A stretch of 64,000 nt of DNA. Origin: Microthyrium microscopicum (Eukaryota). Position 1 is the first letter of the stretch. Every line of letters starts with the position of its first letter. Location of the stretch: assembly GCA_010405405.1 (NCBI GenBank), contig MU004239.1, forward strand, positions 620,001 through 684,000. Direction: 5' to 3'. The translations under genes were made by a program, and so were the position numbers. Under the pieces are notes generated by a model. The model did no database searches, had not been told where the DNA came from, and saw only the letters and a list, made by a program, of their open reading frames with translations. Of the stretch, positions 1 to 56,698 are shown in pieces.

Positions 1-2
1 AC

Positions 3-467
3 GAACACGAAGACGAGAAAGCCCGCCTACGTCGTCTACTACCCAGCGAACCGCCGACAGAGGGCGGAGCATCATCATCTGGTCTAGAATATGCTCCATC
101 CGCGCCTGGACTACCAGACCTTGTGCCTTTCAACTATCAGAACCACCATCATCACCAACAACAGCAACAACACCATTATCATCAAGAACACGCAGAGTCC
201 TCGGCCTCCGCGCCAGCTTACCAGCCATCTGCGAATACAATGCCCACCGACGATAAAGTGGAACTAGAGCGCCAACGGCTTATGGCTCTCGCGAGTGCAC
301 CACCGCCCACGAACGGCAGTACAGGCCCGAGCGCACCGCCAGTTGACGCACAGCGAGACGAGTCATCCACGGCGCCGAATGCGCCAGTGGTAAGAGACGA
401 TGATGATCTATTTGGCTTTGATGGCTTGGGACTGGGAAGGGGAGATTTGCCGAGATATGAACGATGA
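3..467 (+). CDS. palF: 3' end of arrestin-like pH-response regulator (PalF/Rim8-like), truncated by the window edge
   Basis: Frame is open from position 3: EHEDEKARLRRLLPSEPP...DDKVELERQRLMALASAPP...LPRYER*. These motifs match my recollection of the PalF C-terminal tail. The arrestin domains are outside the window. Confidence 0.65.
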   Translation, partial: EHEDEKARLRRLLPSEPPTEGGASSSGLEYAPSAPGLPDLVPFNYQNHHHHQQQQQHHYHQEHAESSASAPAYQPSANTMPTDDKVELERQRLMALASAPPPTNGSTGPSAPPVDAQRDESSTAPNAPVVRDDDDLFGFDGLGLGRGDLPRYER

Positions 468-1106
468 TCTTGACATATAGAGTCAGGAGGTAATATGCTT
501 GGGAAGATGAATTGTATATGAAGATATATGGAGAGAATGTGGAGATAATTGTGTGGATTTTGCAGCATAGCGATTGGGTTTGGATCTGGAGGAATTCTCG
601 ATTTTGGCATAGTTTGTGACTCGACTTGATAGTCAGTCCTTGTTTGATGAATGAATGATATTCTACCTTTTTGTTGGACTTTATGGCTATGGCCTATGTG
701 TTCTTGGAAACTCTTGACTTAGTATGACCTCAATAATAGCAGCAGATCCAAATGCGTAAGGTGGTTTCGGCCGTGGTTTCAATGCCAGTACGACTATTAA
801 TTGAAGTGCTAGTGATTTGATAATCTTGCCTAGCTTTTATATCGTCAACAACGGAGAGTCTAGCATACTGAAGCAAATAGAATAGCAGACGCGGCCTCTG
901 ACCTTATAGCCATATTTGACAACGACGATGATGGCCAGCCCCATATAACCCCTATGGGCGGAAAATTATATATTCAATGTGCACTGTCAACTGCCCTATT
1001 TCTAATTAATGCGGAGGTTTTATCACCAGGTACAACTAAGACAATACATAATAGCAATAGCAAAGCTCCTTTCTATAATTCCTAAAGTGTTTTCTACTCT
1101 CCCAAA

Positions 1107-1871
1107 ATGTTCTTCAACGCAGCCATTCTCGCACTTTCACTCCTTCCCTTCTCCCACGCCCAAGTAAAGGACGATTTCGAAAAGGGTTTGGACGCAGCAG
1201 CATGGCCCATCTACGCACCAGACTGTAATCAAGGCGGAAAAGTCACTCTCGACAGCACAACTGCTCACAGCGGGAAGAACTCTGTTCGAGTGAACGGAGC
1301 AGGTGGATTCTGTGGCCACATTTTCTTCGGTACGACAAAAGTGCCGTCTGGAGATGTCTACGTTCGAGCCTGGATGTAAGTAATAATGAGCGAATATGCT
1401 GCAGGACTAATTCGTGTCTTCTTCAGTAAATCATCCAAAGCCTTCACAGACTCCCACGTAACATTCATAACCATGACAGACGCCGCCCAACCCGCCAAAA
1501 AACACCTCCGCATCGGCGGCCAATCGAAAATCCTCATGTATAACCGCGAATCCGACGATGCCACCCTGCCCAATCTCTCGCCCCAAGGAATTGCTGCGTC
1601 CGCTGCGCTTCCGGCGAATACATGGAAGTGCTTTGAATATCATTTGGGTGCCGATGGCAGTATTGAGACTTGGTTGGATGGCAAGGTTATTCCGGGGTTG
1701 ACGGTTAAGAATGGTGCGGCGAATGCGAATGCGGATCAGTGGAAGAGGGGTGGGTATAAGCCGAAGGTTACGGGCATTTATTTTGGGTGGGAGTCGTATG
1801 GGGGTGATACTAATACGTTTTGGTATGATGATATTAGTGTTGGGTCGACGAGGGCTGGTTGTGATAAGTAA
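1107..1871 (+). CDS. cip1: Cellulose-induced protein Cip1, secreted core domain, no CBM
   Basis: Signal peptide, then QVKDDFEKG..WPIYAPDCNQGGKVTLD..CGHIFFGTT..HLRIGGQS..YNRESDDATLP..FGWESYGGDTNTFWYDD, colinear with Trichoderma Cip1. Intron 1376-1426 (GTAAGT..CTAAT..CAG) joins the two ORFs in frame. Confidence 0.92.
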
Positions 1872-2387
1872 ATGGGCAGTGACTGTTCGAAGTGTAATTG
1901 AAAGAGATGTATGATACAGCAGCAATCAACCTGTACAGTATGCTGCTTCCGGTATACTTGAATGTACTCAAGGAATTGTGAATAACTGGAAGACCAAGCA
2001 AGGCTGAAAACAATATCAGCCTGTTTAGTGTATAAGGCTGCAGATAGCGGTGCAACAACACTTCGTGCAAACATGCCGGATTCCACAGCTGTGACGTTCA
2101 GCTTTACTCGCACTCTTGTGCTAGGAAAGTAACATAACATTATGTATAGCAGTCTAAAGCTTTGCTAGCAACAAGATGTACTGAGCTCAAACGTCAAAGT
2201 TGCTGTTGTTGGCTGGATGAGATACCATCAGCATGGCACAATAGTGCGGACACTATTTCGGTAGTATATACGGTGATAAGCATCGCGCCCCATGTCCAAG
2301 TGAGTAGTCGAAAGCAGTGATCGACCATGATATCGGCCATCGCAGTGTCGACGAAGTATCGACAAAGGCCCCAGCATAGACTTGCGA

Positions 2388-2903
2388 CTAATCGTACAGC
2401 TCGTCTTCCAGTTCATCCAAGGCCTGGCCACAGTGCCAATCCGCCTCTCTATTGCGATTGCGAGGTATGTGCTCATATTCCACGTTGGAATGACCCATAT
2501 TGTCCCAATTCATCAGCCTGTCGTCAAGATTCAGTGCTTGTTCAATGAGATCTCGATTCGCGACTCGATAGCCTCTTGCGTTCCGCCAGCCGTTGTCGTA
2601 CCAAATGTTAGGCCAGTCAGTCAAACAATGAACTGCATAGCTAGAATCAGAACTGATTTTGACGTAGATGGACCGGTAGCCTCGTTGTCGAGCGATCTCC
2701 AAGGCTTGCTCTTGGGCCATGATGATGGCCGTGAGTTCCGCCCGTTGATTTGTGGGAGTGGGATGGTCTGGTAGAATTCTTGTCCATGCTGGGTTTGGTT
2801 GGTTCTGGCGCTGCTCGTAGACGCAGGCGGCGGAGGCTATGGCTGCGGTCGTGCCATTGTGACGACAGGCTCCATCGACTGAGAAGTTCATTCGGTAAGG
2901 CAT
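2388..2903 (-). CDS. Standalone RNase H1-fold protein, copy 1 (171 aa), catalytic D-E-D-D intact
   Basis: Motifs FSVDGAC, NQRAELTA, SSDSSYA, WYDNGW, NRDLI, IPRNRNREAD. The start is placed at MPYRM (2903) by analogy to copy 2 and because 2963-2910 looks like a 5'UTR intron. Confidence 0.9.
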   Translation of the reverse strand: MPYRMNFSVDGACRHNGTTAAIASAACVYEQRQNQPNPAWTRILPDHPTPTNQRAELTAIIMAQEQALEIARQRGYRSIYVKISSDSSYAVHCLTDWPNIWYDNGWRNARGYRVANRDLIEQALNLDDRLMNWDNMGHSNVEYEHIPRNRNREADWHCGQALDELEDELYD

Positions 2904-3443
2904 TCTCTTCTGATCCATCATCCGTTTAGCAACGATTCTGATTTCTTTGCGTACTGAACTTACCTAGACAGACCCTAGAATGAGCCGTTGTCTTTTAGGA
3001 TACAAGTTGAAGCTTGGGAGATGATTCTGGAGAACAAAGTTGATGGTTTGGAGTACAAAGGAGGGAGAAAAGAGAAGATGACGAATTCATGGCCAGCAGC
3101 TCGAACAGAAGGTGCGAAGCATCGGTAAGCAGCAGTGACTTTGCCATGAAGAAAGAGCCCGAGGAGAGAATAGAAGCCTCAACCAAGTCGTTCCATCTGA
3201 CAGAAGGTGCGGTCCACCAGTCGACAAAATACATAGCGCGTTCCAATAGACTCCTTTGGCCCCAATCCGCTACATTCTGTTATCGACTATGTTATTGGCC
3301 ATCTAGTACGTAGAGATAATTGTTAGATATCGAAAACGATTGGACTTAGAAAGTATGCTCTTTACAAGATACGGTGGCAGACATCGCACTTTATGGGAGT
3401 ATGCTATTGATATTAGAGGTATAGAAGAGAAACATGGCGAAGC

Positions 3444-3926
3444 CTACTGCTCATCAAGGGCGTCGTTGCAATACTCATCCGCCAGCTCATTCTGACTGCG
3501 AGGAACCCAAATGTATTCGACATCGCCAAGCTCATTGAGTCTGTCATCGAGATCAGATGCTTCCTCGATAAGATCTCGGTTGCACACCTCGTAGCCTCTC
3601 GAATTGCACCAGCCGTTATTAGCCCATGTGTAGATCCATCGTGTTAGGCAGCCAACCGCATATCTGGAATCGGAGTAGATTCTAATGTCAAGATCTGGGC
3701 TACCATTCAATTCGTCAAACTTTTCCAAGGCCTGCTCCTGGGCCATGATGATTGCGGTGATTTCCGCGCGTTGGTTGGTTGGAGTAGGATAGCTCGGTAG
3801 ATGACGGGTCCAAGAGTCGTGGCCTCCGTGGTACTTCTTGTGGACACACGCGGCAGCACCTATGGCCCATTCTGTGCCATTGCCACGGCAGCCTCCATCG
3901 ACCCAAAGATCCATGCGATACGGCAT
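3444..3926 (-). CDS. Standalone RNase H1-fold protein, copy 2 (160 aa), catalytic D-E-D-D intact
   Basis: Motifs LWVDGGC, NQRAEITA, YSDSRYA, WANNGW, NRDLI, WVPRSQNELAD. Confidence 0.92.
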   Translation of the reverse strand: MPYRMDLWVDGGCRGNGTEWAIGAAACVHKKYHGGHDSWTRHLPSYPTPTNQRAEITAIIMAQEQALEKFDELNGSPDLDIRIYSDSRYAVGCLTRWIYTWANNGWCNSRGYEVCNRDLIEEASDLDDRLNELGDVEYIWVPRSQNELADEYCNDALDEQ

Positions 3927-4896
3927 TTCGGGATTCAGGATATGTCCAACGGATTGGTGTGGGCTGGCGAAGTGATTGGAGGGAGTCTGGTGCGGCGAAC
4001 AGAAGCTAATTTAAACTACCTCTTGCTTAGTATGCAACTAATCATCTCAAGAGCGGCTTACCTAGAAATTACCTAGCGCTTAATTGATTCGTGTATTTTT
4101 ATGTTCGAATTGCCGCAGGCTCATCAAGAGTGGTAGTAAGGCTGGGGCGTGATGCTGGCAACAAAAGTTGATGGTGCTTGTGGAGGAGGAATCTTGTGGT
4201 AGCGAAGATGAATATGAAGGGAAGGGTAATAGTTTGGAAGAAAAATGGAGCCTGCAAAGAGCCGAAAGGTGGCAGTGACCTTGCCGTCACCTCCAAGCGT
4301 TCAGAACTTACCCAAAAGGGCAATCAAAGCTCCAATCAAAAGAGGCTATCCGACGGGAGGTGGTTGATGTATTTCTTTAGCACAAAACCGGATAGTTACA
4401 TGAGTTGCCAGTGAAATGGCGGATGTGGTTTCATATTCAAAGCATGGATAGATGAGAAGCCTTGAAGAGTATCAGAGGTTTGGAAGCAAACCATCAACAT
4501 GCTTTATACTTTGGAGGTGGCATCTGGCGTTCTCAAATTGACTCAAGACAGAGTTAGTGCGCCTATTTTCCATCTCTTGTATAAATATCTCTCTAATATC
4601 TGATATCGGTTATTATATCTGTACATCGAAAGCGAAGCCAATTGGAGAGGATCGATAAGCCCAACGTAGTGATAAGGGAGGCGGCTTGGTGCAAAAACCA
4701 TCTATCCGATGGCGGTTTGGAGACATGTTAACACGTCAACGATGCCAGCTCCAGTCAGGACTTCGGAAAGCGATGGTATTGCTACCACACCCGCTTCATG
4801 CGTGTGTTTGACTCTGTCGATTTTGTGATCAAGAGCGTGCCCAAGAGTGATGCAGCGCACTTATTAAGCTCGCGCTCCTGTTGGTGATGAATCGGC

Positions 4897-6839
4897 TTAT
4901 AGTTCTTCTACTTCCAGCAGCTTTTTGACCGCGGATAGCTTGCGGCTGCATATCTCGCGAGTATGCTGGTTTTGCTCAGGGGTGACCAACCTGTAGTCAA
5001 CCTTGCCTACCCTCCCAATCCGCCCGTCCAGTTCTCCTGCTTCTTCGATGAGATCTCGATGTACTACGGGATCGCCAGTTGTATGTAACCAACCGCTAGC
5101 CCTGTACCTGGCAATGCAATCGCCAATTTGGCACATGTAGCCCATGGCGAATGTAGATGTCGTATTGATTCGCACTCTGATGGTTGAGTCTGAGTCCACT
5201 CCTCCATTGATGTCAAGAGCTGTCTGCTGAGCTAGGATGATGGCCCTGAAAGCTGCGCGGTCCAAGTTAGGAGAGGGACTATGTGGCAAGATCCGACTAA
5301 AGACGATAGATTCTCCAAGTATGGTTCTGCGGACGCAAAGGGCGATGCCTGTGCAGCTGGACGAGCCGTGGTGAATGTACCCGCTCTGGACCCATAACTC
5401 CGCGTAATGCTCTTGACGATGTACAAATTTTCTTGAGATTGACTTGGTGATAGGCGGGATTTTCGGCGGCGAAAGAACAGTGTTGATGTTTGAAGTCGAA
5501 GGGGAATCGGCTAAGGTAGAGCTGTTGCTGTTGTTCTCGTCGGCTCTCTGACCAGAATTAATGAAAAGGTCAGACCTAGAAGTTGTTAGTATAGAATCAT
5601 GATCGGTGCTAACACGCTTAAAAAAGACAATTCGGTCTTTTCACCGTAAGCACATGAAACGCCCATCGCATTTGATTTTTTGTTCCACGGATGTTGTCAA
5701 GAAATGTGATTTGGCACAGGGAAATCTTACCGATCCATCACACTCGTGTCATCTTGATTCGGCTTCCTTCTTACTTTGGAAACTGCTGACCTTTTCAAGT
5801 CTTCAGGGTTTCTCTGAATTTCTAGCTTCTTCACGTCTTCTGGCTGCTTAGGGATCTTTGAAATCTCCTGCCGTTCCGAAAATTTCTGTCCTGCTTCCTC
5901 CTCCTCTTTCTCCTCTTCCGAATCGTCCGAACCTTCCGAATCTTCCGAGGTATCCATTTGATCCAAGTGCTCTGGCACATTGATCTTCTTCGGTTCATTG
6001 ATCTTCTCCGGTACATTGATCTTCTCCGGTACATTGATCTTCTTCGGTTCATTGATCTTCTCCGGTACATTGATCTTCTCCGGTACATTGATCTTCTCCG
6101 GTACATTGATCTTCTCCGGTTCATTGATCTTCTCCGGTACATTGATCTTCTCCGGTACATTGATCTTCTCCGGTACATTGATCTTCTCCGGTACATTGAG
6201 TTTCTCTGCCATATTGCTGCGCTCGGGTGGATTGATCTCTTTGGGTTGATTGAGCTGCTCTGATGTGTTGGATTCACCTTCTAGATCCGAGTCCTCATAT
6301 TCCTCCATCTCTTCATCTTCATCCTGGCTTTCCGGCTCAATAAAATGGCCTAGTTTCGTGTTTAGGTCTTCCTCTCTCTCCAATTGATTCAACTTGGCCC
6401 TACACGAAATATCAGGAATTGTGTTTTGGTGGCGCGGGATCCACTTGTAATTAATCTGGCTCCCTGGAAGACCCTTTATCTCGCGATCAAGTATGTTCGC
6501 CACATCCAGCAAATCGCGGTTTGTCTCCAGGTGCAAACTTGACCCATTCATAGCTCTGATGGTGCTTTTGCAGTCCGACCGAATAGTTACTGAAAGCCTC
6601 CCTTTTGCTTGCAGGCCATTGTAAATCTCAAGAGCCTTCTTTTGAGCTATGATCAGGGCCGTGATTTCAGCACGGGTGCTAGTGGGCCTGGGTTGACTGG
6701 GCAAGACGCTCATCCATTGATCACGGGGATGTTTTCCTGGCTTGGTCTGAACACAAACGGCGACGGCTTTTCTTCGATGTCCTTCGGTGTATGGTCGATA
6801 GCCACCGTCGACGCTGAAGTTGAGGGTAGTTTGTTGCAT
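4897..6839 (-). CDS. Predicted two-domain RNase H-fold protein (~595 aa): domain A with acidic tetrad, acidic/hexapeptide-repeat linker, catalytically dead domain B
   Basis: Exon 1 is 6839-5731 and exon 2 is 5575-4897. Intron 5730-5576 has donor CG|GTAAG, branch CTAAC and acceptor TAG|G, with matching phase 2, and the frame is open from 5575 to 4897. Domain A: FSVDGG / TRAEITA / RSDCK / IPRHQNTIPD. Domain B: LWVQSG / DRAAFRA / NTTSTF / TPEQNQHTR. Confidence 0.72.
5973..6206 (-). repeat. Coding minisatellite, 13 x 18 bp, encoding (E/K)K(I/L)N(V/E)P
   Basis: The plus-strand unit attgatcttctccggtac and its variants repeat in tandem. Translation gives 13 hexapeptide units. Confidence 0.97.
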
Positions 6840-7503
6840 TTTGTCATCCAGCGAGCCACACAACTCTCCGCATGGGCGTAGGGCCCAAGTTCGATTCAGT
6901 TGGTTAGCGATAGTATTGGTGGCTGCTCAATGGCAGGTTGCTCCGTAAGACCAAGTCGTGCTCTGAACCTGTCGTATGAAGTAGAAACCGAAAGAGTCGT
7001 GCGGCTTAAGAAACGGAGAGGTTAGAGTATCGCATTTAACTGTGGGTTCAATGCAATGTCCAAGAAGAGTAGCCAATCACCCTATATTCGCATGTCAAGG
7101 GAACCCTGAGCTCTTCTTAAGATCCGTTCGAGAGATACGTTGTAAGCAAACAACTGAGCATGATGACTTCTAGTCTCTGCAGACCACCAGAAATACAAGG
7201 TAGGTATGTATACCTTCAAGTATAACGACAGGAAATACGACTAGACTTAGAATGCGGAGAATGCGTAACGTGCCTTGGCCTTGGGTGTACGATGTCTACA
7301 AGGTAGGAGGTATTCAATGGCTGCGTGGATGGAGAGGGACTTGTAAGGCTGTATGACAAGATCTTTGTGTGGGATGTAATATGCGATAGATTCCAAAAAA
7401 CGAATGTTATCAAGTTCAATGGCTGTCGTAAAAGTAATGATTACCTAGACATGGTAGAGAGTGCATTTGAAACTTGATGGGACCTAAGAAGTCAAGTGCC
7501 CCT

Positions 7504-7600
7504 ATTTGTTGGGTGTAGAATTATTTTCATCTTATGCACAGGCCTTTTTGAAGGACTATCCCTAACTACCTATACCATAATGAGATTAAAATAGTAAATT
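7504..7600 (+). repeat. Left terminal inverted repeat (~97 bp)
   Basis: Pairs with 16452-16550. It may extend about 10 bp further out (aagtgcccct versus aagtacctttgg). Confidence 0.85.
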
Positions 7601-8319
7601 AATTACTACTCGCTATTTACTATATTATATATATTAAAAGTATAAGTGCTATATTCCTTATAGTATATTATATTATTAGGAGCTTAAAAACTATAGCTTT
7701 CTTTACTAGTTACTAAGTAGATATACTAAACTATTATTTTGTTGCCTTAGATTCTTAGCCTAATCTACCTCTATATATAGTACTTACTATAATAATTACT
7801 TCTTCTATCTTAATTTTAACTATTAGAACTAATACTATTATAGATTCTTATATTATAGCTACGCGTTAAATATAAACTTAAGTATATTAACTAGGTAGGA
7901 TATATATTAATATAACTTACTATATTTACGCTATTATATATCTTAAGTATAACTAGACTAAAATAAGAATTATTAAGAAGATATACTATTTAACGTAAAT
8001 AATTAGGTATTAGAAATATAATATAAGGAAATATAAGTCTATATAGAAACTATAGATACTACTATATAGAACGCTTTTATAACTTAAACTAGTAGATAAG
8101 AATACTTTATTATAATATTTTTTATTATATAGCTAGTAATTATAAGCTAAAATAGTTTACTAGCTAGAGTAAGAGCATAATATATTAGTAGATAGATTTA
8201 TAATATCTAGAATACTTAAGAAAAGAGGATAGAAAATAAAAGCTATTATATAATTATTACTAAATAAGAGTAAAGAGCTTTATACTATATACTACTAAGA
8301 TTTATTATAGTTTAAAGCT

Positions 8320-8790
8320 TAAGATTTAGTCTTTCTAGATAAGTCTATCTTTAAAGAGTAGAATAGCTAAAGACTATATATATATATATTTATAGGTTAA
8401 CTCTTATAATAGATATAGAATATAAATTATAGAAAGATATATATAATTCTAGCTATTATAATACTTAATAGGTATTTTTCTTATACTAGATTTTAAGAAA
8501 AGTATTATAATGTAGAGGACTTCTATAATTAGATTAGGATATANNNNNNNNNNNNNNNNNNNNNNNNNNNNNNNNNNNNNNNNNNNNNNNNNNNNNNNNN
8601 NNNNNNNNNNNNNNNNNNNNNNNNNNNNNNNNNNNNNNNNNNNNNNNNNNNNNTTAGTTTATACTAATTTAGGTATAGAATAGCTATTAAAGAATATAGG
8701 CTTTATTATTTACTATCTACTACTCTACTCTTTTAATTTTAATCTAATAGAGTTAATGTTTAGTATTCTTAAGGCCTAGATAAAAAGGAA
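8320..8790 (+). pseudogene. RIP-inactivated IS630-Tc1-mariner (DDE_3-type) transposase catalytic region
   Basis: Translation gives DLVFLDKSIF (~8324; de-RIP LVFLDESIF), YYNVEDFYN*I (~8504) and YLLLYSFNFNLIELMFSILKA*IKR (from 8714; de-RIP YLPPYSPDFNPIE.FS.LKAWIKR). The second catalytic Asp would fall in the N gap. Full gene limits are unknown. Confidence 0.85.
8544..8653. other. Assembly gap (110 N)
   Basis: Run of N. The transposase motifs on either side are colinear and consistent with a gap of roughly this size. Confidence 0.99.
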
Positions 8791-9570
8791 TTAGGTATAT
8801 AAATAGTAAAATTTTAGGAACTTTATGTCTTTCTTAGAGTATATAGTTATAGCTAGTAGCTATAATTGCTTTATAGTTAGATAGTTTAGATATACTATTA
8901 AGAATTTATATTATAAAGGAATAAATATATATACGTATTATAAGTTCCTTTAGGAATATAAGATATAAAGTATAGTAGAGCTTTATTAATAAAATAATTA
9001 GTTATTACGTTATAAAGGAAATATTTAGGGTAATATAGATACTACTAGGTAATTTATATATTATAATTATAGGATATTAATATTATATAGTAGTTTAGTT
9101 TATTTTATATTTTATAAACTAATTATTAAATAGTACTTTACTATTCTTTATCTTTCTATTCCTATTCTTACTAGCTATTCTATACTAGTAAGTAGTTTTT
9201 ATTTACCTCTACGTATAGTAAGTATAAATAAGGACTATTAACTAGCACTTTCTATATAGTTTCTTAGTCTATTTAGATAAAAGAAGTTAACTACTATATT
9301 AGAGTCCTAATAAAACTTCTTATTATCTTAGATATAAGGCTAGCAAGCTAGGGCCTTTGCTTCTATATACTTTAGTAATATATAAAGAATATAGAAGTAA
9401 AGGTATAGAAGTTAGAGTCCTATATAAAGGATAGTATTTTTTAATATAGTAGAAACGCGTATTAGTAAGGAGAGAGTCTTAAGAATCTTATTACTATTTT
9501 TAGATAGTAATAATCTAATAGTAGTAAAGTCCTAGCTCTTTTAGTATTTCTTTTAAAATAGTAAGCTAAT

Positions 9571-10016
9571 AGAGCCTAATCTCTTATAGTATTTCTTTAG
9601 AAAAGTAAACTAGTAGAGTTTTAGTAAATAAACTAAAGAGATAGAAAGAATATATATTAGATAGTAGCTTAACCTAAATAAATTAGAGAAATTAAGGAAA
9701 TATATATTAGATAGTAGCTTAATCTATAATTTATAGAAATAATATAAAGATAGTACTCTATAAGAAATAAAGTTTTATAGCTCTAAGTCTTAAAGCTAAA
9801 TTAGAGTTAATTTAGTAAGCTATAAAGTATAGAGTCCTAACTCTCTTAATAATATTATTAAAAGAATATACGCTAGAGGGTAGCTTAATCTAAATAAACT
9901 AAAGAAATTAAGAGAATATATACTAGAGAGTAACTTAACCTAAATAGATTAAAGAGATTAAGGGAATATACGCTAGAAAGTAGCTTAACTTATAGTTTAT
10001 AGGTATAATATAAAGG
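9571..10016. repeat. 50-bp tandem repeats (clusters of 2 and 3) within a ~260-bp direct duplication, inside the RIPed element
   Basis: Units such as gaatatacgctagagggtagcttaatctaaataaactaaagaaattaaga start near 9650, 9700, 9864, 9914 and 9964. The leader agag(t)cctaa(c)tctctta occurs at both 9571 and 9831. Confidence 0.8.
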
Positions 10017-13000
10017 TAAACTATTAGAGGAGTTAAAATCCTATTTAGATCCTAGTTATTATTAAATTATAGTAGATTGCTAGAGCTAGTAATATAACGT
10101 TATAAAAAGGGACTTATTAATAGTATAGATACTAAAGGATAAGTTATTCTAAATAAAAAGATAATAGAATAGAAATAATAAACTAGCGCTAACCTAAGTA
10201 ATAAAGTAATATATTAGTAAAGATAAGTATTAAATAAGAAAGATAAAGAAGTACTAAAGAATAGTAAATAAAGGATAAATTTTATACTTTTCCTATACTA
10301 AGTAATACTAGATTAGGATATATTTATTATAATTAGCCTTTATATTTATACTATATACTAATAAGTAATTTATTAGTAGTAGTAAAGTACTAGTATCTAA
10401 GAATAGACTTATATAACTTTAGTATTAAGACTAGAGTAAAGAACTTACTAATAAGAAGATAAATAGTAAGAATATATTACTTAGTATTAAGAGAGAGAAT
10501 AGTAAATACCTAATTTGCTATAGCTAAAGTTATATAGTATTTAAGTATTAAGGAAGAGAAGTTAAGAACTATTAATAGTATTATATAAAGCTATTATCTA
10601 TACTAGCCTTAACGTTAATAATATAATTTATTAGTAATATAAGATAATATTACTAAGAATATAGATACTAAGAAGAGAACTACTAGCTACTTATAGTATA
10701 TAATATTATTATGTATATTAAATTAATAGAATATACTATACTAAGAGATAAAGTTACTATATAATTATAAGTATAAAGTAAGTATAGTATATTAAGAATA
10801 GCTAATAATAAGATTATATTTAGGGATAAAGTTTAATAGTTATAAAGCTTTAGGTAATAGTAAGGTATATAGGTAATTATAATGTAGGTAATAAGGGATA
10901 ATTATTAGCTATTTATAAATATATCTTTATAAAGTTATAACCTTAGTAGTTAAAGATATTAATATACTATATTAATCTAGATAATATATATTATAAGCAT
11001 TTTTAAAGAAGATATTTAGTTTTTACTAAAATCTAGGAGTAGTATACTACTCTTTAGTTATAATTAATATACTAATTTTTTATATATTTCTATTTAGCTT
11101 TACTATATATTAACTATAATATATATCTTATTTATATTTACTATTTATAGTTTGTATAAATGCTTTAAATAACTTTATCTTTATTTTATTAAATAATATA
11201 AAATATTAGGTAAATAGTAGCTTAGTATTAAATCTACTAAAAAATTAGGCTATATTATCTTACTATTTACTTCTTTAATATTATAAGACTTTATAATTTT
11301 ACTATAAAATTATAAAATCTAAGAGATTATACTAAGTACTATCTTCTAGCTAATATTATATATACTAGTATATAAATCTTAAGTATATTATTACTTACTT
11401 ATTATAATTAACCTAATAGGTTAATCTTTACTAGTCTATTACTATAGATAGTTATTATTACTTACTAATTATTCTTATTAGTATATCTAAATATAATATT
11501 AATTCTTTCTTACTATAGTTATAATATAGTATAAGATTATATCTTTAAATCTTTATATTATTAACTATAATAGTAGCTCTACTTTATCTACTTATTATAA
11601 TTTATAATATCTTTCTTATTGCTATCCTAACTATTATAGTTATCTTAATCTTATAGGCCTTACTACTATAATTAGGTATTAGGTTATACTAAAGATACTA
11701 ATATAGAGAGTTTAATACTTTAGCCTATGTTTAATTATAAGTAATAGTAACCCTTTATTAGTAAGTTCTCTTTATTATATTCTTATTATAACTTTTTAAA
11801 ATATAGTAAGTAATAGTATTTATATATTCTAATGCTTATAAAGTCTTATTTATTCTTAGTTCTTTCTATTACTTCTATAAACTACTTTATATATAATATT
11901 TATTAAGAACTCTTCTATAATACTTTATATTTTACTTCTATACTTTTCTATATTATTAACTACTCTAATACTTACTTTATTTACTCTATTTACTCTTTAT
12001 AATCTTAAATTATCTTATTATAGTTAATCTATAAGTTCCTAATTCTTAGCACGATTCTCTAGGTTTTTAAGCTTAATGCTACTAATTAGCTCTTAATATA
12101 ATCTTTAGCTTTAAAAGCTATAGTAATATCCCTAATACTAGTAATAGCTTAACTAGTATTTACCCTTTTATTTTATACCTTAATAGCGCTATTAGTAGTA
12201 CTATAGGATTTTATTACTATAAGCCTAATAGCTTATATATTATAATAATTAATCCTTCTAATCCTATTATCTATTACTTACTTTATTAAATTGTAATAAA
12301 CTCTAATATAAGTTAATATTTCTATTATCTTTATATATTACTAAGTTATAGATAGGATCTATAGATTATTACTAATATAGACTACTCTCTAGTTAATATA
12401 TAGGTTTAAGACTTACTACTAATTAATACTAGATATACTATATATAAGATAATAATTACCTATAGTGCTTAATTCTCTAAAAAGATGCTACTTAACTAGA
12501 ACTCCTTTACTTCTCTAAATATATAAGAATTTCCTATTATAGTACTCTTTTTCTACTATATTACTTAACTACATTATTATAATACTTAATACTTAGATTA
12601 TCTTTCTATAGATAGTACTTAACTTTATCTAATAACTTATACTTATAATTATAACTAGCTAGATCTATATAAATATATAAGCTATTTTAACTACTAAAAA
12701 GAATTATACTCTAATTATATTTTTTATAATTAACTTATAACCTACTTTCTCTATAATACTAATGCTAATTCTTAAGTCTTTCTACTTTTTACTCTAGTAT
12801 AGCGCCTATGTCTTACCCTCTTCTTTATAACTCTTTATAACCTTTATTAACTTTTATAATATAATTAAGCGTTCTAAAGGCTTAGATATAGGAATTTAAT
12901 ATTATTTAACCTTCTTACTTTATATAAATAACTTCTTACTAATAGTTTTAATTATTAAAGGGTAGTAATAGGATCATAGTATTATTTAATATTTTTGCTT

Positions 13001-16000
13001 TATAAAAATAGCTTCTTACAAATAGTTTTAGAATAGGGAATAGTAGTAATAGAAATAGACTAGATATTAGTAGTTAATTATTTCTAAAATTATTATTTAC
13101 TTAAATTTATAGTTATAGATAGGATATTTAAGAGTAGTTTTTAATTATAACTAATATTAAACTACTAATACTATAATAAATAATTTAATTTTCTAAATCT
13201 TTTCTATGCTAGTTAAAAGCGTTATTTTTAATAAGTAATAAAAGAAATAATTATAAGATATATTATAAATACAAAATAGTAAAAGTAAAATAAAAAATAG
13301 GAAAATATATAATAATAAATATAACTTTAGTAGAATTCTAATAAATTAATTACTTATAAATTAATAAGGATAGGCTTAAGTTAGTAAAAAGATACCCTCT
13401 TATTCTATTATTAACTACTACGCCTACTACTTACCTAGAACCTATTAACTTACTAAGTAATGCTTCCTAAAAGCAGAACTATCTTCTTTATTATTAGGTA
13501 CGCTAACCTCTTAATTAGTAGGCTATTTCCTAATAACCTAGTCCTTAAAATACTTAATAACGCTAGGGATTTATACTATTATTAACTCCTAAACTTTTAC
13601 CTTTATTAACGTATAGTAAATAGGATTACTATTCTAAGTATTCTCTACCTCTAAAGTAAGAATATCTATATTATACTAGTCTATTACTCCTTAAGTTGCT
13701 TCCTAATCTCTATTAGTACTAACTAGCTTAAACTAAGTAATATAGAAAAAGAATAATTATATAGTATTAACTATTTTTAGTACTAGAGATAATATATATA
13801 GTTTAGTACGTAGGGATATAAAAGATATTATAATAGGACTTAATCTAATTTTAATAACTAGGCCCTTATTAGTAATAGATAGTTACTTTTATAAAAAAGT
13901 AGTTTAGCGCTCTAAAGTAATAGCTTTTATTAGAGTAACTACTAAAGCTTTATGTTACCTTTTTATAGTATTTTTAGAACTACGTTCTAGTAAGGTAGTT
14001 TAAACTTATGGCTATAGTAGATGTTTTTAATAAGGTCTAGAAACTAAGATAAAAGAAGGACTTAATATTATAGTATAAGATACTATATTAATATATGTTT
14101 CTAAATTATTTTAAATAAATAAAGATAAAGCTTATAGCAAGACTTATAAAACTATTAATAATAAGTAATTATAATAACCCTAAAGAAGTTAAAACTAAGG
14201 ATAATTTAATAAAGAAGAAAAGGCCTAAAGATATATAAATTGTTAATAGGCTTACTATAAAGGAGCATATATTTATAAAGATCTATAATAAGGAATACTA
14301 GAAGGATATATAAACTAAGGGTAGCTTATTAATAATAACTAAATAGGTAGCTACTAAAAAGCTAAAGCTACTTCTCTATTGTCTTATTTTTAATTATAAC
14401 GCCTATTATAATGTCTCTTTTATGTCTTATACCTATTAGACTTACGTTTATCTTATGTAGCCTACTTATTAGCTTTCTTATTTTTATATTTAATTTACTT
14501 CTTCTTTATATCTAGCTCTAGATAATTAATCTCTTACTAATAATTATAGTATTCCTTATTAGCTTTAGCCTTCTCTTATGTAGCTTCTCTCTTATATTTA
14601 ATAGCCTCTAGCCTTATCTACTTTATAATAGTCTCTAGTTCTTACTAGCAAATACTTAACGTAAATATCTTACCTTATAGTCCTTTAGTACTATGAGTAT
14701 CTATAGTTATAAGAGGACTACTAATTATAAGCTAGATATTCTAAAAATATATAAAAATCTTTATAGGTAGATTCTTAGTAAAAGCTTTACTACTATTAAT
14801 AGCGTTATACTACGTTTATTACTAAGGACTACTTATAATAAAATGCTACTTATTAAAATCCTTAAAGTAGTAGTAACCTTTATTAGGATAATAGTCTTAA
14901 GTATAAGAGTTATATAATAAGATAGTAGTAAGATTATCTTTCTTCTTAGAGTTATCTTTACTATCTAGTAGATATTTATTAATAAGCTTATTCTACTATT
15001 ATAATAGAAAACAAGTATTATCTTTAATATTTATAGTAGAAACTACTTTAGTAGATAGCTTTAGTTAAATTACTAGCTATAGCTTAATAGTAATAAAATA
15101 TATACTTTCTTTTAACTAATTTATATAATAATATTAATCTAACGCCTAGATCTATAGCTTAAAGATATTAGTATTAAAGCTAGGCTTTATAGAGTCTTTT
15201 ATCGTACTAGTAACTTTAAGATAGTTAGATCTCTATTAAATAGTTATAGTCTTAGTATTATATTCTTACTCTATAGTATACTTCTCTATAAAGATATACT
15301 ACTTCTTAATTACTATAGTACTAAAATCCTACTATATAATACTATTAATAGTATTCTTATATATTATTAAACTTCTTATATTAGTACTAGGCTTAATTTT
15401 ATAGAACTTTATATAAAGGTTAATAGTATAATTAACTAGAGCTAAGAATATATTGCTAGTATTAAGATTAATAGCGTCTAATTCTAATATAGATTTATTA
15501 ATTTTGCTATACTTCTTCTAGCCCTTAATAAACATTTTTTATAGTATCTTAAGATTAGCTTTCTTCTTCTTTTTAAAGAACCTTAGTAGATTATTTATTT
15601 TCTTCTTTATAAGTTCTAGCAGGTTATTAGAATCTATAGGTTCTTTACCTATTAAATTTTTAACTTTACTACCTAATTTATCTTTACTATTCTCTTTATC
15701 CTCTTTATTCTCTTTATTCTTAAGCTTTTTCTTATTATTTTTATTAGACTCTTGCTAGCTATTAGTATAGCTAGTATTAAATACTATATATTTAGCTTTA
15801 GTCTAAGCTAATTTTACTATATTTTATTTATTTACTACTATTATTATTAAGTAGCTATACTCTTACTACTAAATAATCCTCTTCTTACTTTTAGAATCTT
15901 TCTATATAATAGACTTTATTAAAGATTTTATCTTATTCTTTACTAATAAAGTTTTTAGTGTAAATTTAACTTTTAACTTAGGTAGTACTATTTTTTTAGC

Positions 16001-16451
16001 TTTTAAAGTAGATTTAAACTTAGTCTTACGTTCTTTATGCTTAATTTCTTCCTATTACTTTTACTTATATCTATATAGTTAACTATTAGCTATAATATTA
16101 TAAAAATAAGTAAGAAACCCTTATTAAACTTAAATAAAAATAGATAAGAAGAGTAAGAAATATATACTAACTAAGCTTAGCTTTATATTTTAGTTAGTTA
16201 GTATTAAGTACTAGGGTATTATTGTCCTAGCCTATGTAAATATTATACTTTTTTTTAGCTCTATTATTTAGGCTTTAAAGATTTTTAGTAGGTTCTTATA
16301 GTATTTACTAAAGAGTAGAGAATTAAGTATGCTTTATAGTAGTAATAGGCTTAGATAGTATACTTTCTAGATAAAAAGATATAGATTTATAAGTAGATTA
16401 TAACGATATAGGTTTATATATAAACTTTATAATAGATAGTAAGTAATCTTA

Positions 16452-16550
16452 AATTTACTATCTTGATCTTAAATTATGATATAGGTAGTTAGGGATATTT
16501 TTTTTAAAAGGCCTATGCACGACCTAAAAATAATTCTGCACCCAACAAAT
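16452..16550 (-). repeat. Right terminal inverted repeat (~99 bp)
   Basis: Reverse complement aligns to 7504-7600, with mainly transition mismatches and small indels. Confidence 0.85.
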
Positions 16551-17639
16551 CCAAAGGTACTTAGAAGGCGTTTTTACTCCCCAAAGAGGAATAGCGCGCA
16601 AAAGAGTAAAAGTCGTTTTTACTAAGTAAAATCGACTTGCACTCCACTTTTACTTCTCGTCCTAACCTACGATTAACCTATTTTAGAATAGTGCTATAGT
16701 TGAGTTAACGTTAGAGTTATTTAATTAGATGTTAAAGGGCTATATTCCTATTCTTCTTAATAGTTATGCCCTTTAAATCTATATATAAAGATACTAAGAA
16801 CCTAGAATACTTAATTAATACGCACGTATTTAGACATATTTAGCGTATATTTTGGCTTCTTTTTGGCTTCAGGGCGTAGATTATTAATGGAAATATCGCA
16901 AAGTTATGGCACAAAAACGTTCACAGGGGCAATTACTATGAGGGCAGTTTCTGCGGTTTAATATCAGAAGATGTCAGGGGCTAGGCTAATTCCAGCGTAG
17001 ATCTACAGTGAAAATCCGCAGTAAATATGGAGTCGAAATCTCAGGAATTTCACACCCGACCCTCTCCAATCAAGCGTCGTTATCATTATGGATGGCAGTG
17101 TCTATACTCATGATGATCATACAGTTCAGTTTGACCACAGAGCAGTGACCACCAAGAACAGAGCAATCGAACTTCATGTACAGTTTCTCATCTTTTGCGT
17201 AAAAACGTAGGAACTTAAATATGGCAAATACTTTTCCCACTCAAGCAATGGATAGCCGTATATTGAGGCCGAGGCATGCTTCCGTTTCTAAAAATAAGCA
17301 CTGCAGTGCCACAACGCAACAACATCTGAGGCCTCTTTTGAACCACCAGGCGCGGCGATCGACATTTTGGATTGGCGCCACCCGTAAATCGACCACTAAG
17401 AAGTAGGTTATGATGAACACAAGACGAACTGAGGTCGTGCCCAGTCGCGCTATGAACGAATGAATAACACAAACCGCTTCCAAAGGACCATACTTCGTAT
17501 CCCTTGCAGTATAAAAAGCTCTACCATCATCGGGAAAATATACTGCCTACTGAAAACTCGATATCTCCTAGTCGAGGACAGACAGCTCAACAACTCGACC
17601 ACAGACGATACCAAATCACCTCGCTACGTCCTACGAAAC

Positions 17640-45715: not shown

Positions 45716-46233
45716 GGTGGGTTGAGGTGCCCTGGCAGGGTCGTTGGTGAGGAGGGAAGATCAGTCGGAGGTCAATCGGTCGAGTGACCAATACCTGGGT
45801 GGGTTCGAGGGAGATTGAGTAGAATGCTGAGCTTGAAGGGGCGATATGGTGCGGGCTTAGGTGAATTGAGGATAAGTCGATGGAGTGAAGTTGTAATGGG
45901 ATAATGCCAAGACTTTGAGCTAGAGCGCCAAGACTCGTACCTGCAACTGCAACTCCCAAGTCTCCAACTGTGGTACGGTACATCTCGACTCTCCATTCTC
46001 CCACCTGTCGCTTCTATCCCGCTATAAACTTCACGTCTCTCCTGCCGACCTCTCTCTCCTATAATACTCATTGGCTTCCTCGTTCTTAACAGATTCGGAA
46101 AGCGTTAGCGCTGTACTGGCGCAACAACCCTATAAACTCGATTCGCCATCTCTCGCGGCTTCGTTCGACCATTAACAACTTCTCGACTCTTCATATCTCT
46201 TCTTCATAGCTGAACGATTGGCAGAATCCAACA

Positions 46234-47685
46234 ATGAAGCCAGCCGCTCGTGGATATCCTCCGCAAAATCTCGGCAATACCTTCTCCCAGCTCCACCAAC
46301 AACCCGGCCCACATCAAACCTCACATATTCAACAACATCCATCTCTCCAACACAATTTTAGTGCCCATCATGCGTTTGCTAGTCAAAGCAGTATATTTGG
46401 CCCACAAGGCACCAACGGCGCCAATGGCGGCTCCTCCAATCTACACGCTGGTTTCGGAGGAGGTGGTGGATTAGGCGGACAATCAGCACAAATGGCTTTT
46501 GGTCATGGCGGCCTACAGCAGCAATTACAACAAGCGCATGAACCCAACTCTAATGTTATGCGTGGACAAGCACAGCGGATTCGCGAAGTGTGGAAGGGCA
46601 ACTTGGCCGAGGAAATGGCCGTCGTACGCATGCTGATTGACAAGTACCCATACATCAGTATGGACACTGAGTTCCCTGGAGTAGTAGCGCGACCCATCGC
46701 CGAAGATTTTGGCTCAAAGAGTGCCTTTCATTATCAAACTATGCGCTGTAATGTCGACCTGCTCAAGCTCATTCAATTGGGCATTACCCTTTTCACAGTC
46801 GATGGCGAAATGCCACCCCCAGATGCATTAAACCACGTTCCGCGGAGTCAATTACCTGCTAACATGACCATATGTCCATGTACATGGAGCTTCAATTTCA
46901 AGTTCAGCCTGGATGAAGATATGTACAATGAAGCTTCAATACGTCTGCTCAAAGACTCGGGTGTCGATTTCGAAAAGCACAATACTAACGGTATTGATGT
47001 TGAGGAATTTGGCTCACTTCTCATTACTTCCGGTCTTACATTCTCTAATGACGTTCACTGGATTTCATTCCATGGCGGCTACGATTTCGGTTACCTATTC
47101 AAGGTCATGTGGAATCGAGGATTGCCCCAGGATGAGGAACATTATCGACGTCTGATCAAGAAGTTCTTTCCTAACATTCTCGACGTCAAGTTCCTGCTCA
47201 ATAGTGCACGCCGACAACGCGATCGTGGAACAGTTAATTCCAATGTTGCCAAAGCGCTCGAAAGTTTCGGCCAGAAACCTGGTTTACAAGACATAGCCGA
47301 CGACCTTGGCTTGACCAGAGTCGGTATTAGTCATACAGCTGGCTCAGATGCCTGGTTGACTGGTCTTTTGTTCTTTGAAGTCCGAAAACGTGTCTTCGAC
47401 GATCAAATACCCGAAGAATACAACGGCCAAATGTGGGGTCTGACTGGTATAGGACCACCTGCGTCTACTACTGCTCAAGCCGCCGCGCTGGCCTTGCATC
47501 AAAATCAAGCTGCGGCTGCTGCCAACGGCATGGCATATCACACGGCGGGTGCTCATCATCGAGAAGGCGGCCCTAGCACCCCTACCACCAATCCGACTGG
47601 TCTGGTTTCGACACCATCACAAGGCTTCTCCTCGATGACTCCAGGGGCCGGTGGGGCGTTTGGCAACTTTCAGTATGCAAAATAG
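46234..47685 (+). CDS. CAF1: CCR4-NOT deadenylase subunit Caf1/Pop2 (DEDD exonuclease)
   Basis: IREVW..NL, YISMDTEFPGVVARP, YQTMRCNVDLLKLIQLG, WISFHGGYDFGY, GLQDIA..L..HTAGSDAWLT. Intronless, 483 aa. Confidence 0.96.
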   Translation: MKPAARGYPPQNLGNTFSQLHQQPGPHQTSHIQQHPSLQHNFSAHHAFASQSSIFGPQGTNGANGGSSNLHAGFGGGGGLGGQSAQMAFGHGGLQQQLQQAHEPNSNVMRGQAQRIREVWKGNLAEEMAVVRMLIDKYPYISMDTEFPGVVARPIAEDFGSKSAFHYQTMRCNVDLLKLIQLGITLFTVDGEMPPPDALNHVPRSQLPANMTICPCTWSFNFKFSLDEDMYNEASIRLLKDSGVDFEKHNTNGIDVEEFGSLLITSGLTFSNDVHWISFHGGYDFGYLFKVMWNRGLPQDEEHYRRLIKKFFPNILDVKFLLNSARRQRDRGTVNSNVAKALESFGQKPGLQDIADDLGLTRVGISHTAGSDAWLTGLLFFEVRKRVFDDQIPEEYNGQMWGLTGIGPPASTTAQAAALALHQNQAAAAANGMAYHTAGAHHREGGPSTPTTNPTGLVSTPSQGFSSMTPGAGGAFGNFQYAK

Positions 47686-55476: not shown

Positions 55477-56698
55477 ATAAATCGCGGCTCTCAACACAGC
55501 TTCCTCTTTGTTTTCGTCGAGATCTTCGTTGGTAGGATCATTTTCAACACCGTCAGCTTTCCTAAATCGGCACTGGATCCTGTGCAGTATTGTACTCAGT
55601 CTTTCACACTGGCTTAATCCTCTTGAGCCTGTCTCCTGTGTCAACGCTAATCATGTTGAGTCTGGGAAATGGGTATGAAAAGAACACGGCATGGCTTTAC
55701 TTTTGTGTGAAGGCTACTTGGGGAAGCAAGGTGTTCCGTCTGTGAATTTTGACGGTGGTCGGGTTTCTCGTAACCTTCACGCTAGTCGAACTTGGTATCC
55801 GCTTCGCATCATTGCTAATTCATTTTCCTAGCTCATTCTCCAAGGAAGAAACGAACTGGTCTAGGCTGTCATACCCTTTCGGAGAAAAATGCTGTCAAAT
55901 ACGGCTGTTCTTGAGGAGCTTTGATGCGAATCAGTTTGAGCTGTCATATTAGATGGCCATTATTTGTGTCAAGTCTGCGACGAAGAATACGCTGCTCAAA
56001 ATTGGAAACGGAGTGAGCTGCTTCAGATCTCTAAAGTTCCATGATTCTTTCATGTGAGTGGCTGACCTTGTTACACAGATATGATATGTTACCTCTGCCA
56101 TAGACTAGGATGGATAGATCTTGAAGCGATAACGAAGCCAATCGTCATCCTCGTTCTCCGTACTAGAGCCAACTTACCTAGGAGGTACGTTCCCGAGGCA
56201 GACGCCGTAGACTCTCTTCAACAATGTAGTCAAAAGAGCTTTTTCCTTACCCTCGGGCCTCAATTAGTACCTCACCGTACTCTCACCTATAGTGTCTGTA
56301 CTCTATGGATCCCTAGGCAGATATTTGTCACATCAAGATGCTGTGCTTCATGTCGTGCTGGGTCTGAAAACTCAAGTTTTGCATTTGGTCGCCCTTGCCT
56401 ATTATCGGGCAGCTCTTACCGCCTGTACAGTTGAGAGCTCCTTCCTTTACAGGACATCTTGATGTTGATTTCACATCGCTACTGCCTCCATTGATTAACA
56501 TTGACTTACCTTTACTACTGCCTTGTAGGTGCGTATGGTTGCCTGATACATCTCACTCCCCACAGTGCTCCTCAAATTCCTTTGTGTTTCAACAATCTTC
56601 CCCCTCTTTACTCAATCTTGTAATTTCGATACACTCTCTTCCTCTTCTCAGCCTACTAGTTTGACAAGCGTTCTTTCTGCCTCTTCAGTCTTATCAGC

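Follow-up and report, generated by a model that had tools for sequence, protein, structure and literature searches.

Positions 2388-6839 of a 64,000-nucleotide (nt) stretch of contig MU004239.1 (hereafter the window) hold four ribonuclease H (RNase H)-like domains, arranged head to tail on the minus strand and close to an AT-rich block that carries the signature of repeat-induced point mutation (RIP). The locus raises the question of whether these domains are debris of a mobile element, parts of one functional system or cellular genes in their own right. A first-pass annotation of this DNA had proposed a locally expanded module and a candidate for an undescribed system. We favor, with a probability of about 0.6, the explanation that the locus holds three cellular type-1 RNase H genes, two of them encoding free enzymes and the third an old fusion of a live and a dead domain, with the dead domain acting as a partner of the live one. 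The domains are called D1 to D4 in order of position, D3 and D4 belonging to the compound gene.

The four-domain array is real and far beyond chance. The open frames at 2388-2963 (D1), 3444-4010 (D2), 4897-5640 (D3) and 5727-6926 (D4), all on the minus strand, are the sole long frames of the interval. When the four frames were compared by tblastn with the whole window, they matched one another with E values from 1e-51 (D1-D2) down to 9e-6 (D3-D4), and elsewhere in the window no match was better than E 0.07. D1 and D2 matched the Pfam family RNase_H (PF00075) with 53.7 and 68.3 bits, both above the gathering score of 25.8; D3 had no Pfam match and D4 only a weak match to RVT_3 (E 0.007). A hidden Markov model (HMM) built from 114 members of a fungal family of ~160 amino acids (aa), described below, recovered all four, with 279 bits for D2, 187 for D1, 95 for D3 (E 7e-29) and 82 for D4 (E 7e-25). 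The AlphaFold model of D3 (predicted local distance difference test [pLDDT] 92.5, predicted template modeling score [pTM] 0.88) has RNase H topology, with E. coli RNase HI structures as its best folds (Foldseek E 7e-9), and the AlphaFold (AF2) model of D4 (pLDDT 89.2, pTM 0.86) matches solved RNases HI (Foldseek E 1e-8). The RNase H fold, a five-stranded sheet with helices A to E, is therefore found in D1 and D2 through Pfam and in D3 and D4 through the models. Nucleotide identity between the paralogs is 46-61%, without an excess of transitions. The earlier description of four diverged paralogous RNase H domains arranged head to tail on the minus strand is borne out by tblastn, the HMM and the models.

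In the alignment, the catalytic Asp-Glu-Asp-Asp tetrad is complete in D1, D2 and D4, and D3 has Q/A/T/R at those positions. By their residues, then, D1, D2 and D4 would qualify as enzymes and D3 as a pseudo-enzyme, which agrees with the first-pass statement that only three of the domains are intact, D3 having lost all four catalytic residues.

Gene structures were examined with a public run (X1, library kind not on record) that contains 90% of the region's sampled words. Where its contigs align to the window they match it letter for letter, seven of seven pieces being at 99% or more. A 4740-nt contig covers 1012-6006 except for just three intervals: 2910-2963, 4016-4061 and 5576-5730. All of them are bounded by CT..AC on the plus strand, which corresponds to GT..AG on the minus strand; the simplest reading is that the contig derives from RNA spliced from the minus strand. 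The first interval is the 54-nt D1 leader intron (2910..2963, GTAAGT..AG), whose upstream exon ends in an in-frame TAG (2966-2964). The second is the 46-nt D2 leader intron (4016..4061), seen as a joint in the contig, with an in-frame TAA (4013-4011) upstream of the ATG. Because in-frame stops precede the ATGs in both spliced leaders, the D1 coding sequence is set at 171 aa (2388..2903, ATG at 2903) and that of D2 at 160 aa (3444..3926), and these gene models match the protein-collection entries P0154 (D1) and P0001 (D2). The third is the 155-nt fusion intron of the compound gene (5576..5730), whose donor is GTAAGA, branch site TACTAAC and acceptor TAG; it was also predicted from sequence, and its removal fuses the frames of D4 and D3 in phase. 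The resulting frame runs from the ATG at 6839 to the stop at 4897, is open over about 595 codons and gives a compound protein of ~595 aa.

On the basis of run X1, the compound, D1 and D2 genes are supported as real, co-oriented and spliced. The layout first described, three co-oriented genes coding for two free nucleases and one compound protein, holds through the splice joints and the in-phase fusion. A second X1 contig is unbroken from 6170 to about 7496, at the edge of the RIP-mutated block and ~650 nt upstream of the compound-gene ATG, which implies either a long leader of the compound gene or an upstream transcript starting at the AT-rich border. The contigs break inside an 18-nt repeat array of the compound gene, and one bin, 742-988, is uncovered. 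X1 coverage of 1012-2387, a stretch that includes the convergent Cip1-like gene, suggests antisense or unspliced RNA over that gene.

The compound gene combines two domains with complementary losses. Its N-terminal domain, D4 (6360..6839, minus strand; 82 bits with the family HMM, isoelectric point [pI] 9.7), keeps the catalytic D/E/D/R/D residues, but in the alignment a 12-residue deletion removes the basic protrusion, and the model is without helix C. An acidic, disordered linker of low complexity, with a net charge of -24, follows up to the end of exon 1 (5731..6359, minus strand). Within it lies an 18-nt tandem repeat (5977..6199, minus strand; 12.4 copies, 95% matches and no indels according to Tandem Repeats Finder) that encodes PEKINV/PEKINE hexapeptides; this repeat looks recently expanded, and its copy number may vary. 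Exon 2 (4897..5575, minus strand) encodes a short linker and then the pseudo-RNase H D3 (~5424-4900), and ends in LLEVEEL. D3, with a pI of 7.2, has Q/A/T/P/R at the five catalytic positions and retains both the fold and the protrusion segment. The N domain has thus kept the active site and lost helix C, while the C domain has kept helix C and lost the active site. Both carry Tyr at the position of Cys13, an invariant residue of the ~160-aa family, and with the protrusion or the catalytic residues lost both depart from the pattern of that family.

To place this architecture in time, we looked for relatives of the D3 exon in an exhaustive profile-free search of 1.84 billion representatives, which returned 95 proteins at E ≤ 0.001, 10 at ≤ 1e-10 and 1 at ≤ 1e-30. 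The top two, P0121 (541 aa) and P0122 (480 aa), come from Microthyrium microscopicum (Dothideomycetes, Microthyriales), and both consist of an N domain, a linker and a C domain. Both are encoded on a single 2.5-Mb contig and their accession numbers differ by six, a near-adjacency that hints at a cluster there as well. In this search the compound live-plus-dead protein was found in only two lineages. A word-based homolog search with the compound N domain, limited to proteins of 202-646 aa, yielded 131 candidates, none of which scored. Between the compound gene and P0121, identity is 43% over 158 aa for the N domain and 46% over 212 aa for the C region, and the linker is unalignable. The C regions share the FVHRQEHY lead-in and an identical LLEVEEL end.

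A maximum-likelihood tree of 61 rows and 170 columns was rooted on RNase H1 with its hybrid-binding domain and contained no retroelement RNase H sequences. In it, the three N domains form one clade (100/94, ultrafast bootstrap/SH-aLRT) and the three C domains another (100/97), a split separates the N domains, the C domains and D1 from the rest (93/83), and D2 sits on a short branch amid ordinary family members. Since N domains group with N domains and C domains with C domains, the live-plus-dead fusion is, on this tree, old and not the product of a recent local expansion, and it predates the split between the lineages of the window gene and of P0121/P0122. All three C domains share the changes D70->T and D134->R. 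The occurrence of the same two inactivating substitutions in all three argues for retention since a common ancestor, and the sequences place the loss of the active site in that ancestor and the dead C domain under constraint. The idea of a locally expanded module is not supported by these results: the N and C clades make the fusion old, and D2 is one copy of a family with 568 relatives. Within the two clades, the window N domain pairs with P0122_N (97/50) and the window C domain with P0121_C (98/81), conflicting pairings that could stem from long branches or from domain exchange; the C-clade branches are long, 0.87 for the window domain and 2.12 for P0122_C.

Other multidomain arrangements were seen among the relatives. 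P0123, from a metagenome-assembled genome of Protoblastenia rupestris, is an independent two-domain fusion of the ~160-aa family; its first domain keeps all catalytic residues, and in the aligned part of the second the four catalytic positions covered are kept (E, D, R, D), the position of the N-terminal Asp not being aligned. P0136 of Mycena pura (626 aa) has a long N-terminal region without Pfam matches followed by a C-terminal domain of the ~160-aa family. In P0167 an entire unit, hybrid-binding domain plus RNase H1, is present twice in tandem.

The two free genes belong to a much more common kind of protein. A relative search with D2 gave 568 proteins with E ≤ 0.001 among 579 candidates; the best 120 of the 568 are 60-70% identical over full length, most of them are ~160 aa long, and D2 itself is 69% identical to its best relatives. 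They come from Aspergillus, Penicillium, Metarhizium, Trichoderma, Xylariales, Leotiomycetes and Dothideomycetes, examples being P0009 of Aspergillus pseudocaelatus, P0027 of Cenococcum geophilum and P0039 of Pochonia chlamydosporia. In the corresponding search with D1 (148 matches among 205 candidates), the best non-self relative was its neighbor D2 at 56%, all others being at 56% or below; a Mycena and a Phenoliferia protein were also among the matches. In all 119 of 119 close family members, D10, E55, D86, R143, N146, D150 and C13 are conserved together with three tryptophans of the protrusion (W97, W101 and W106). D2 carries every one of these invariant residues, and D1 the catalytic ones, C13 and the tryptophans, with both the D/E/D/R/D set and the basic protrusion intact. 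Three cysteines are near-invariant in the free family: C93, and two that come just behind catalytic Asp residues, C13 behind the first and C153 behind the last. They hint that the vicinity of the active site has a redox or metal feature.

We are therefore confident that D2 is the ordinary local representative of a ~160-aa family with no hybrid-binding domain, widespread in Pezizomycotina, and that D1 is a diverged duplicate of that kind. Length and invariant residues make D2 a member and D1 a diverged member, and the compound domains are far more diverged (82 and 95 bits). Source databases call these proteins ribonuclease H, "ribonuclease H1" or "ribonuclease H-like domain-containing protein," and no paper on the function of the family was found among open-access papers and bioRxiv; as far as found, the family is named by homology only and uncharacterized. 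D2 thus counts as an already annotated family member, and what appears to be new is D1 as a diverged member and the compound live-plus-dead protein.

D1 may be a recent local duplicate of D2 or a sister to the compound-gene domains. A clade of D1 and D2 was not rejected by the approximately unbiased test (p 0.167), and the leaders of the two genes share a 37-nt element (ACCATCAAC.TTTGTT..CCAG.ATCA...) at 3011-3047 and 4140-4175 on the minus strand, 47 nt (D1) and 78 nt (D2) upstream of the leader-intron donors. Its local alignment has a z score of 4.7, a value reached by 0 of 200 shuffles. The element is either the remnant of a tandem duplication unit of ~1.0-1.1 kb or a shared regulatory element.

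We then asked which type of RNase H these domains represent. None of the four frames has a Pfam match to the hybrid-binding domain (PF01693), which is detected in P0167, a fungal RNase H1 that served as control. Upstream of the D1 and D2 ATGs there are in-frame stops, and the compound frame opens only at 6926, so the earlier remark that no N-terminal hybrid-binding domain is present is correct. Also confirmed, by the alignment, is the PRxxNxxxD loop of the three intact domains. D1, D2 and D4 read PRxxNxxAD and have Arg instead of His, in place of the His-containing loop of P0167 (GHSGHYGNEEAD); this residue, R143, is found in D1, D2, D4 and 119 of 119 family members. According to PMC4408406, Arg replacing the active-site His is a mark of the archaeal-like RNase H subtype, and PMC1950709 describes archaeal RNases HI as devoid of the basic protrusion. 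The protrusion is retained in D1, D2 and D3 and missing only in D4.

Against solved structures, the family profile matched E. coli RNase HI and human RNase H1 best (E 1.5e-14), followed at a distance by LC11 (1e-7) and Rv2228c (1e-6); native RNase H of human immunodeficiency virus (HIV; 2e-10) and that of murine leukemia virus (MLV; 4e-4) were weaker than the cellular best. The best NCBIfam match was the bacterial RNase HI equivalog, with 56 bits against a cutoff of 160, and the archaeal equivalogs gave 18-29 bits against cutoffs of 140-300. The best folds of the D4 model were the Rv2228c N-domain and the S. tokodaii, Halobacterium and LC11 RNases HI (TM score 0.79-0.83 on target), a resemblance to archaeal-type structures that arises because the protrusion was lost secondarily within the fungal family. 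The family thus combines an Arg-type loop with the handle of the E. coli and human enzymes, and "archaeal-type," the label given to the loop at first, fits in part: the Arg loop is there, whereas D1 and D2 keep the E. coli/human-type protrusion and match E. coli RNase HI and human RNase H1 best.

Compared with housekeeping RNase H1 (human 2qk9 and fungal P0167), the window domains share the fold, the DEDD core and, where it is retained, the protrusion with its W..W..NGW pattern, and identity between D2 and P0167 is 35% for one catalytic domain of the latter and 31% for the other. They differ from it in that RNase H1 carries a hybrid-binding domain at its N terminus and a GHxGxxxNExAD His loop, whereas the window domains have the short PRxxNxxAD. 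Archaeal-type RNases HI (2ehg/3aly, 4e19, 3u3g and Rv2228c, 3hst) have the Arg for His in common with them (PMC4408406) and, like the compound N domain, no protrusion; D1, D2 and the dead C domain, which keep the protrusion, are unlike them in this respect (PMC1950709).

The retention of a dead domain beside a live one calls for an explanation. D1 and D2 would be free RNases H that depend on metal. The compound protein's dead C domain could be a noncutting docking or regulatory partner of the live N domain, docking nucleic acid or protein in the manner of the hybrid-binding domain of RNase H1 or of the dead tether of retroviral RNase H, and the acidic linker may mask the basic N domain. We put forward this mechanism, by analogy, as a tentative one. 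It has two precedents in the literature: the hybrid-binding domain has been proposed to compensate for the missing protrusion in B. halodurans RNase HI (PMC1950709), and retroviruses and Tat elements have RNase H pairs of a dead and a live copy, the dead one being kept by selection (PMC4408406). The likeness to the retroviral dual RNase H (tether/connection plus RNase H) and to plant Tat (gRNH plus aRNH) extends only to the presence of a degenerate and a live fold in one polypeptide. Those pairs are part of Pol, lie downstream of a reverse transcriptase and have the dead copy first, whereas the compound gene has no reverse transcriptase and its order is live, then dead. The compound protein also differs in the acidic linker of ~260 residues between its domains and in that both domains derive from one cellular family. 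Among open-access papers and bioRxiv we found no description of a cellular protein in which a live RNase H is joined by a tether to a conserved pseudo-RNase H.

Several observations weigh against the explanation we favor. The free family is acidic, with a median pI of 4.78 (98 members) and a pI of 4.5 for D2. An acidic pI is unusual for an enzyme acting on nucleic acids. In the C domains, the PTNQRAE stretch next to the active site is degraded (PNLDRAA, PTAQRAE and LCTRRAR) and two of the three protrusion tryptophans are altered, so that canonical hybrid binding by the C domain is doubtful; its extensions at both termini, which are conserved, point to contacts with protein instead. In the N domain the PTNQRAE stretch is altered as well (PTSTRAE) and an invariant cysteine has changed, so that this domain may itself be weak or altered. 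For the ratio of nonsynonymous to synonymous substitution between paralogs, the synonymous rate was saturated or not computable. The transcript evidence comes from the single run X1, of unrecorded library kind, and the 4740-nt contig crosses intergenic DNA and an unspliced intron of the Cip1-like gene (plus strand, GTAAGT 1376..CAG 1426), which leaves transcript units undefined; a contig that crosses several genes does not establish a single transcript. Five metagenome loci of the fungal-type family each hold one RNase H gene, three of the five with a flank of 2 kb or more. Lastly, an ancient capture from or by a retroelement may have taken place, the tree having taken in no retroelement RNase H. 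A complex prediction of the N domain with the C domain gave a score of 0.00 and the verdict "no answer," evidence neither way.

Could the domains be relics, or a long-ago domestication, of a retroelement RNase H, for instance from a non-LTR element (LTR, long terminal repeat), beside a transposon destroyed by RIP? The weak RVT_3 matches (2.5e-5 for D1 and 0.007 for D4) speak for this, as do the Arg-type loop, which recurs in the archaeal-like RNase H of plant L1 and Tat elements (PMC4408406), and the RIP-mutated block 660 bp away. This block (7500..16700, ~9 kb, with a 110-N assembly gap at 8544-8653) has RIP indices of 1.62 and 0.12 and 21% GC (15-25%), and begins ~660 bp upstream of the compound ATG. 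Of the first-pass claim of a RIPed element at ~660 bp, the distance and the strong RIP signature hold, whereas the identification as a transposon does not, no Pfam family being found in the block in six frames with X at stops. Pfam scans of the four frames, of 14 neighboring frames and of the block found no reverse transcriptase, integrase or gag. Neither reverse transcriptase nor integrase occurs in any of 14 longer relatives, nor does gag or an LTR. A repeat search of 1-7600 found no inverted repeats and no LTR-like repeats flanking the cluster, the direct repeats there being the 18-nt array, conserved paralog coding stretches and the leader-element pair, which measured 38 nt in this search. 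The cluster itself is without a RIP signature (TpA/ApT 0.59, (CpA+TpG)/(ApC+GpT) 1.41). On both counts, absence of retroelement parts and absence of RIP damage in the cluster, the first-pass annotation was accurate. The stand-alone ~160-aa form is moreover conserved at 60-70% with the catalytic set intact in 119 of 119, the family retains the basic protrusion, its closest counterparts are the cellular RNases HI/H1, and the genes have spliced introns. A retroelement origin is therefore very unlikely in our judgment. Because the profile is closest to E. coli RNase HI and human RNase H1, no reverse transcriptase or integrase is present in the 14 relatives and no LTR-like repeats flank the cluster, we classify the genes as cellular by sequence, and not as retroelement debris.

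The dead C domain might instead be a decaying duplicate without function, and the fusion an accidental product of read-through splicing. The loss of all four catalytic residues, the absence of a Pfam match and the long C-clade branches (0.87 and 2.12) would fit such decay. The C region is, however, the best-conserved part of the comparison with P0121, with its LLEVEEL and FVHRQEHY motifs beside a linker that cannot be aligned; the frame is open, the model is confident (pLDDT 92.5), and the same two inactivating substitutions recur in three proteins of two species. We consider simple decay as improbable as a retroelement origin. A dedicated module of two nucleases and a regulator or reader, directed against retroelement intermediates, R-loops or viral RNA, is a further possibility that we regard as unlikely. 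It would account for the tight linkage and co-orientation of the genes, for the cDNA-like contig that runs from 6006 to 1012 across all of them, for the leader element common to D1 and D2, for the position at the edge of the RIP-mutated block and for the conserved live-plus-dead architecture. Tandem duplicates are nevertheless linked by origin, so that linkage alone implies no joint function, and a single transcript does not follow from the contig across the genes. In the five fungal-type loci each D2-like gene is on its own, and no defense-like or silencing gene is adjacent, the RNA-dependent RNA polymerase gene being ~50 kb off. The undescribed system proposed at first is accordingly not supported, with no sign of joint action and the D2-like gene alone in those five loci. 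A bolder version, somewhat less probable still, would make the compound protein a "reader-eraser" in which the dead domain recognizes a hybrid, an R-loop or a partner, the live domain cuts only at the docking site and the nucleic-acid-mimicking acidic linker acts as a gate; together with D1 and D2 it would make up a lineage-specific module that keeps retroelement or R-loop intermediates under surveillance at a RIP-silenced border.

If three cellular genes with an old live-plus-dead fusion are indeed what the locus holds, several consequences follow. Fungi are usually described as having RNase H1, with its hybrid-binding domain, and RNase H2. The locus points to a third fungal RNase H family that is small and acidic, has no hybrid-binding domain and carries an Arg-type active site. 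The compound gene would show, in a cellular protein, a live RNase H linked to a conserved dead one, an arrangement otherwise known from retroviral and Tat-element polymerases, and could serve as an experimental handle on the roles of dead RNase H folds in binding, targeting or regulation. Should it prove true that the dead domain recognizes hybrids, nature would offer in it an equivalent of the engineered inactive RNase H1 probes with which R-loops are mapped (PMC8266564). If the locus is only a cluster of a diverged gene family, the result is ordinary.

The surroundings of the cluster were also examined. We kept 80 metagenome loci, of which 5 belong to the fungal-type family and 75 hold relatives at ~30% identity that are uninformative here. 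The retention of the array in relatives, raised by the first-pass annotation, is found in part: the compound architecture recurs in P0121 and P0122, whereas the array is unseen in the five fungal-type loci. The proteins of the Cip1-like gene and of the upstream neighbor had no match in these loci (L001-L005). The Cip1-like gene is the convergent neighbor of D1 on the plus strand (1086..1871), with PF21340 matches of E 2e-34 and 7e-74 on its two exons. Farther away, a gene for a CAF1-family ribonuclease lies at 46210-47685 on the plus strand, ~40 kb from the cluster, with no link to the RNase H genes shown. The RNA-dependent RNA polymerase (RdRP) gene, at 56660-58579 on the plus strand and ~50 kb from the cluster, matches PF05183 with E 2e-73 and carries a fungal RdRP PH-like domain.

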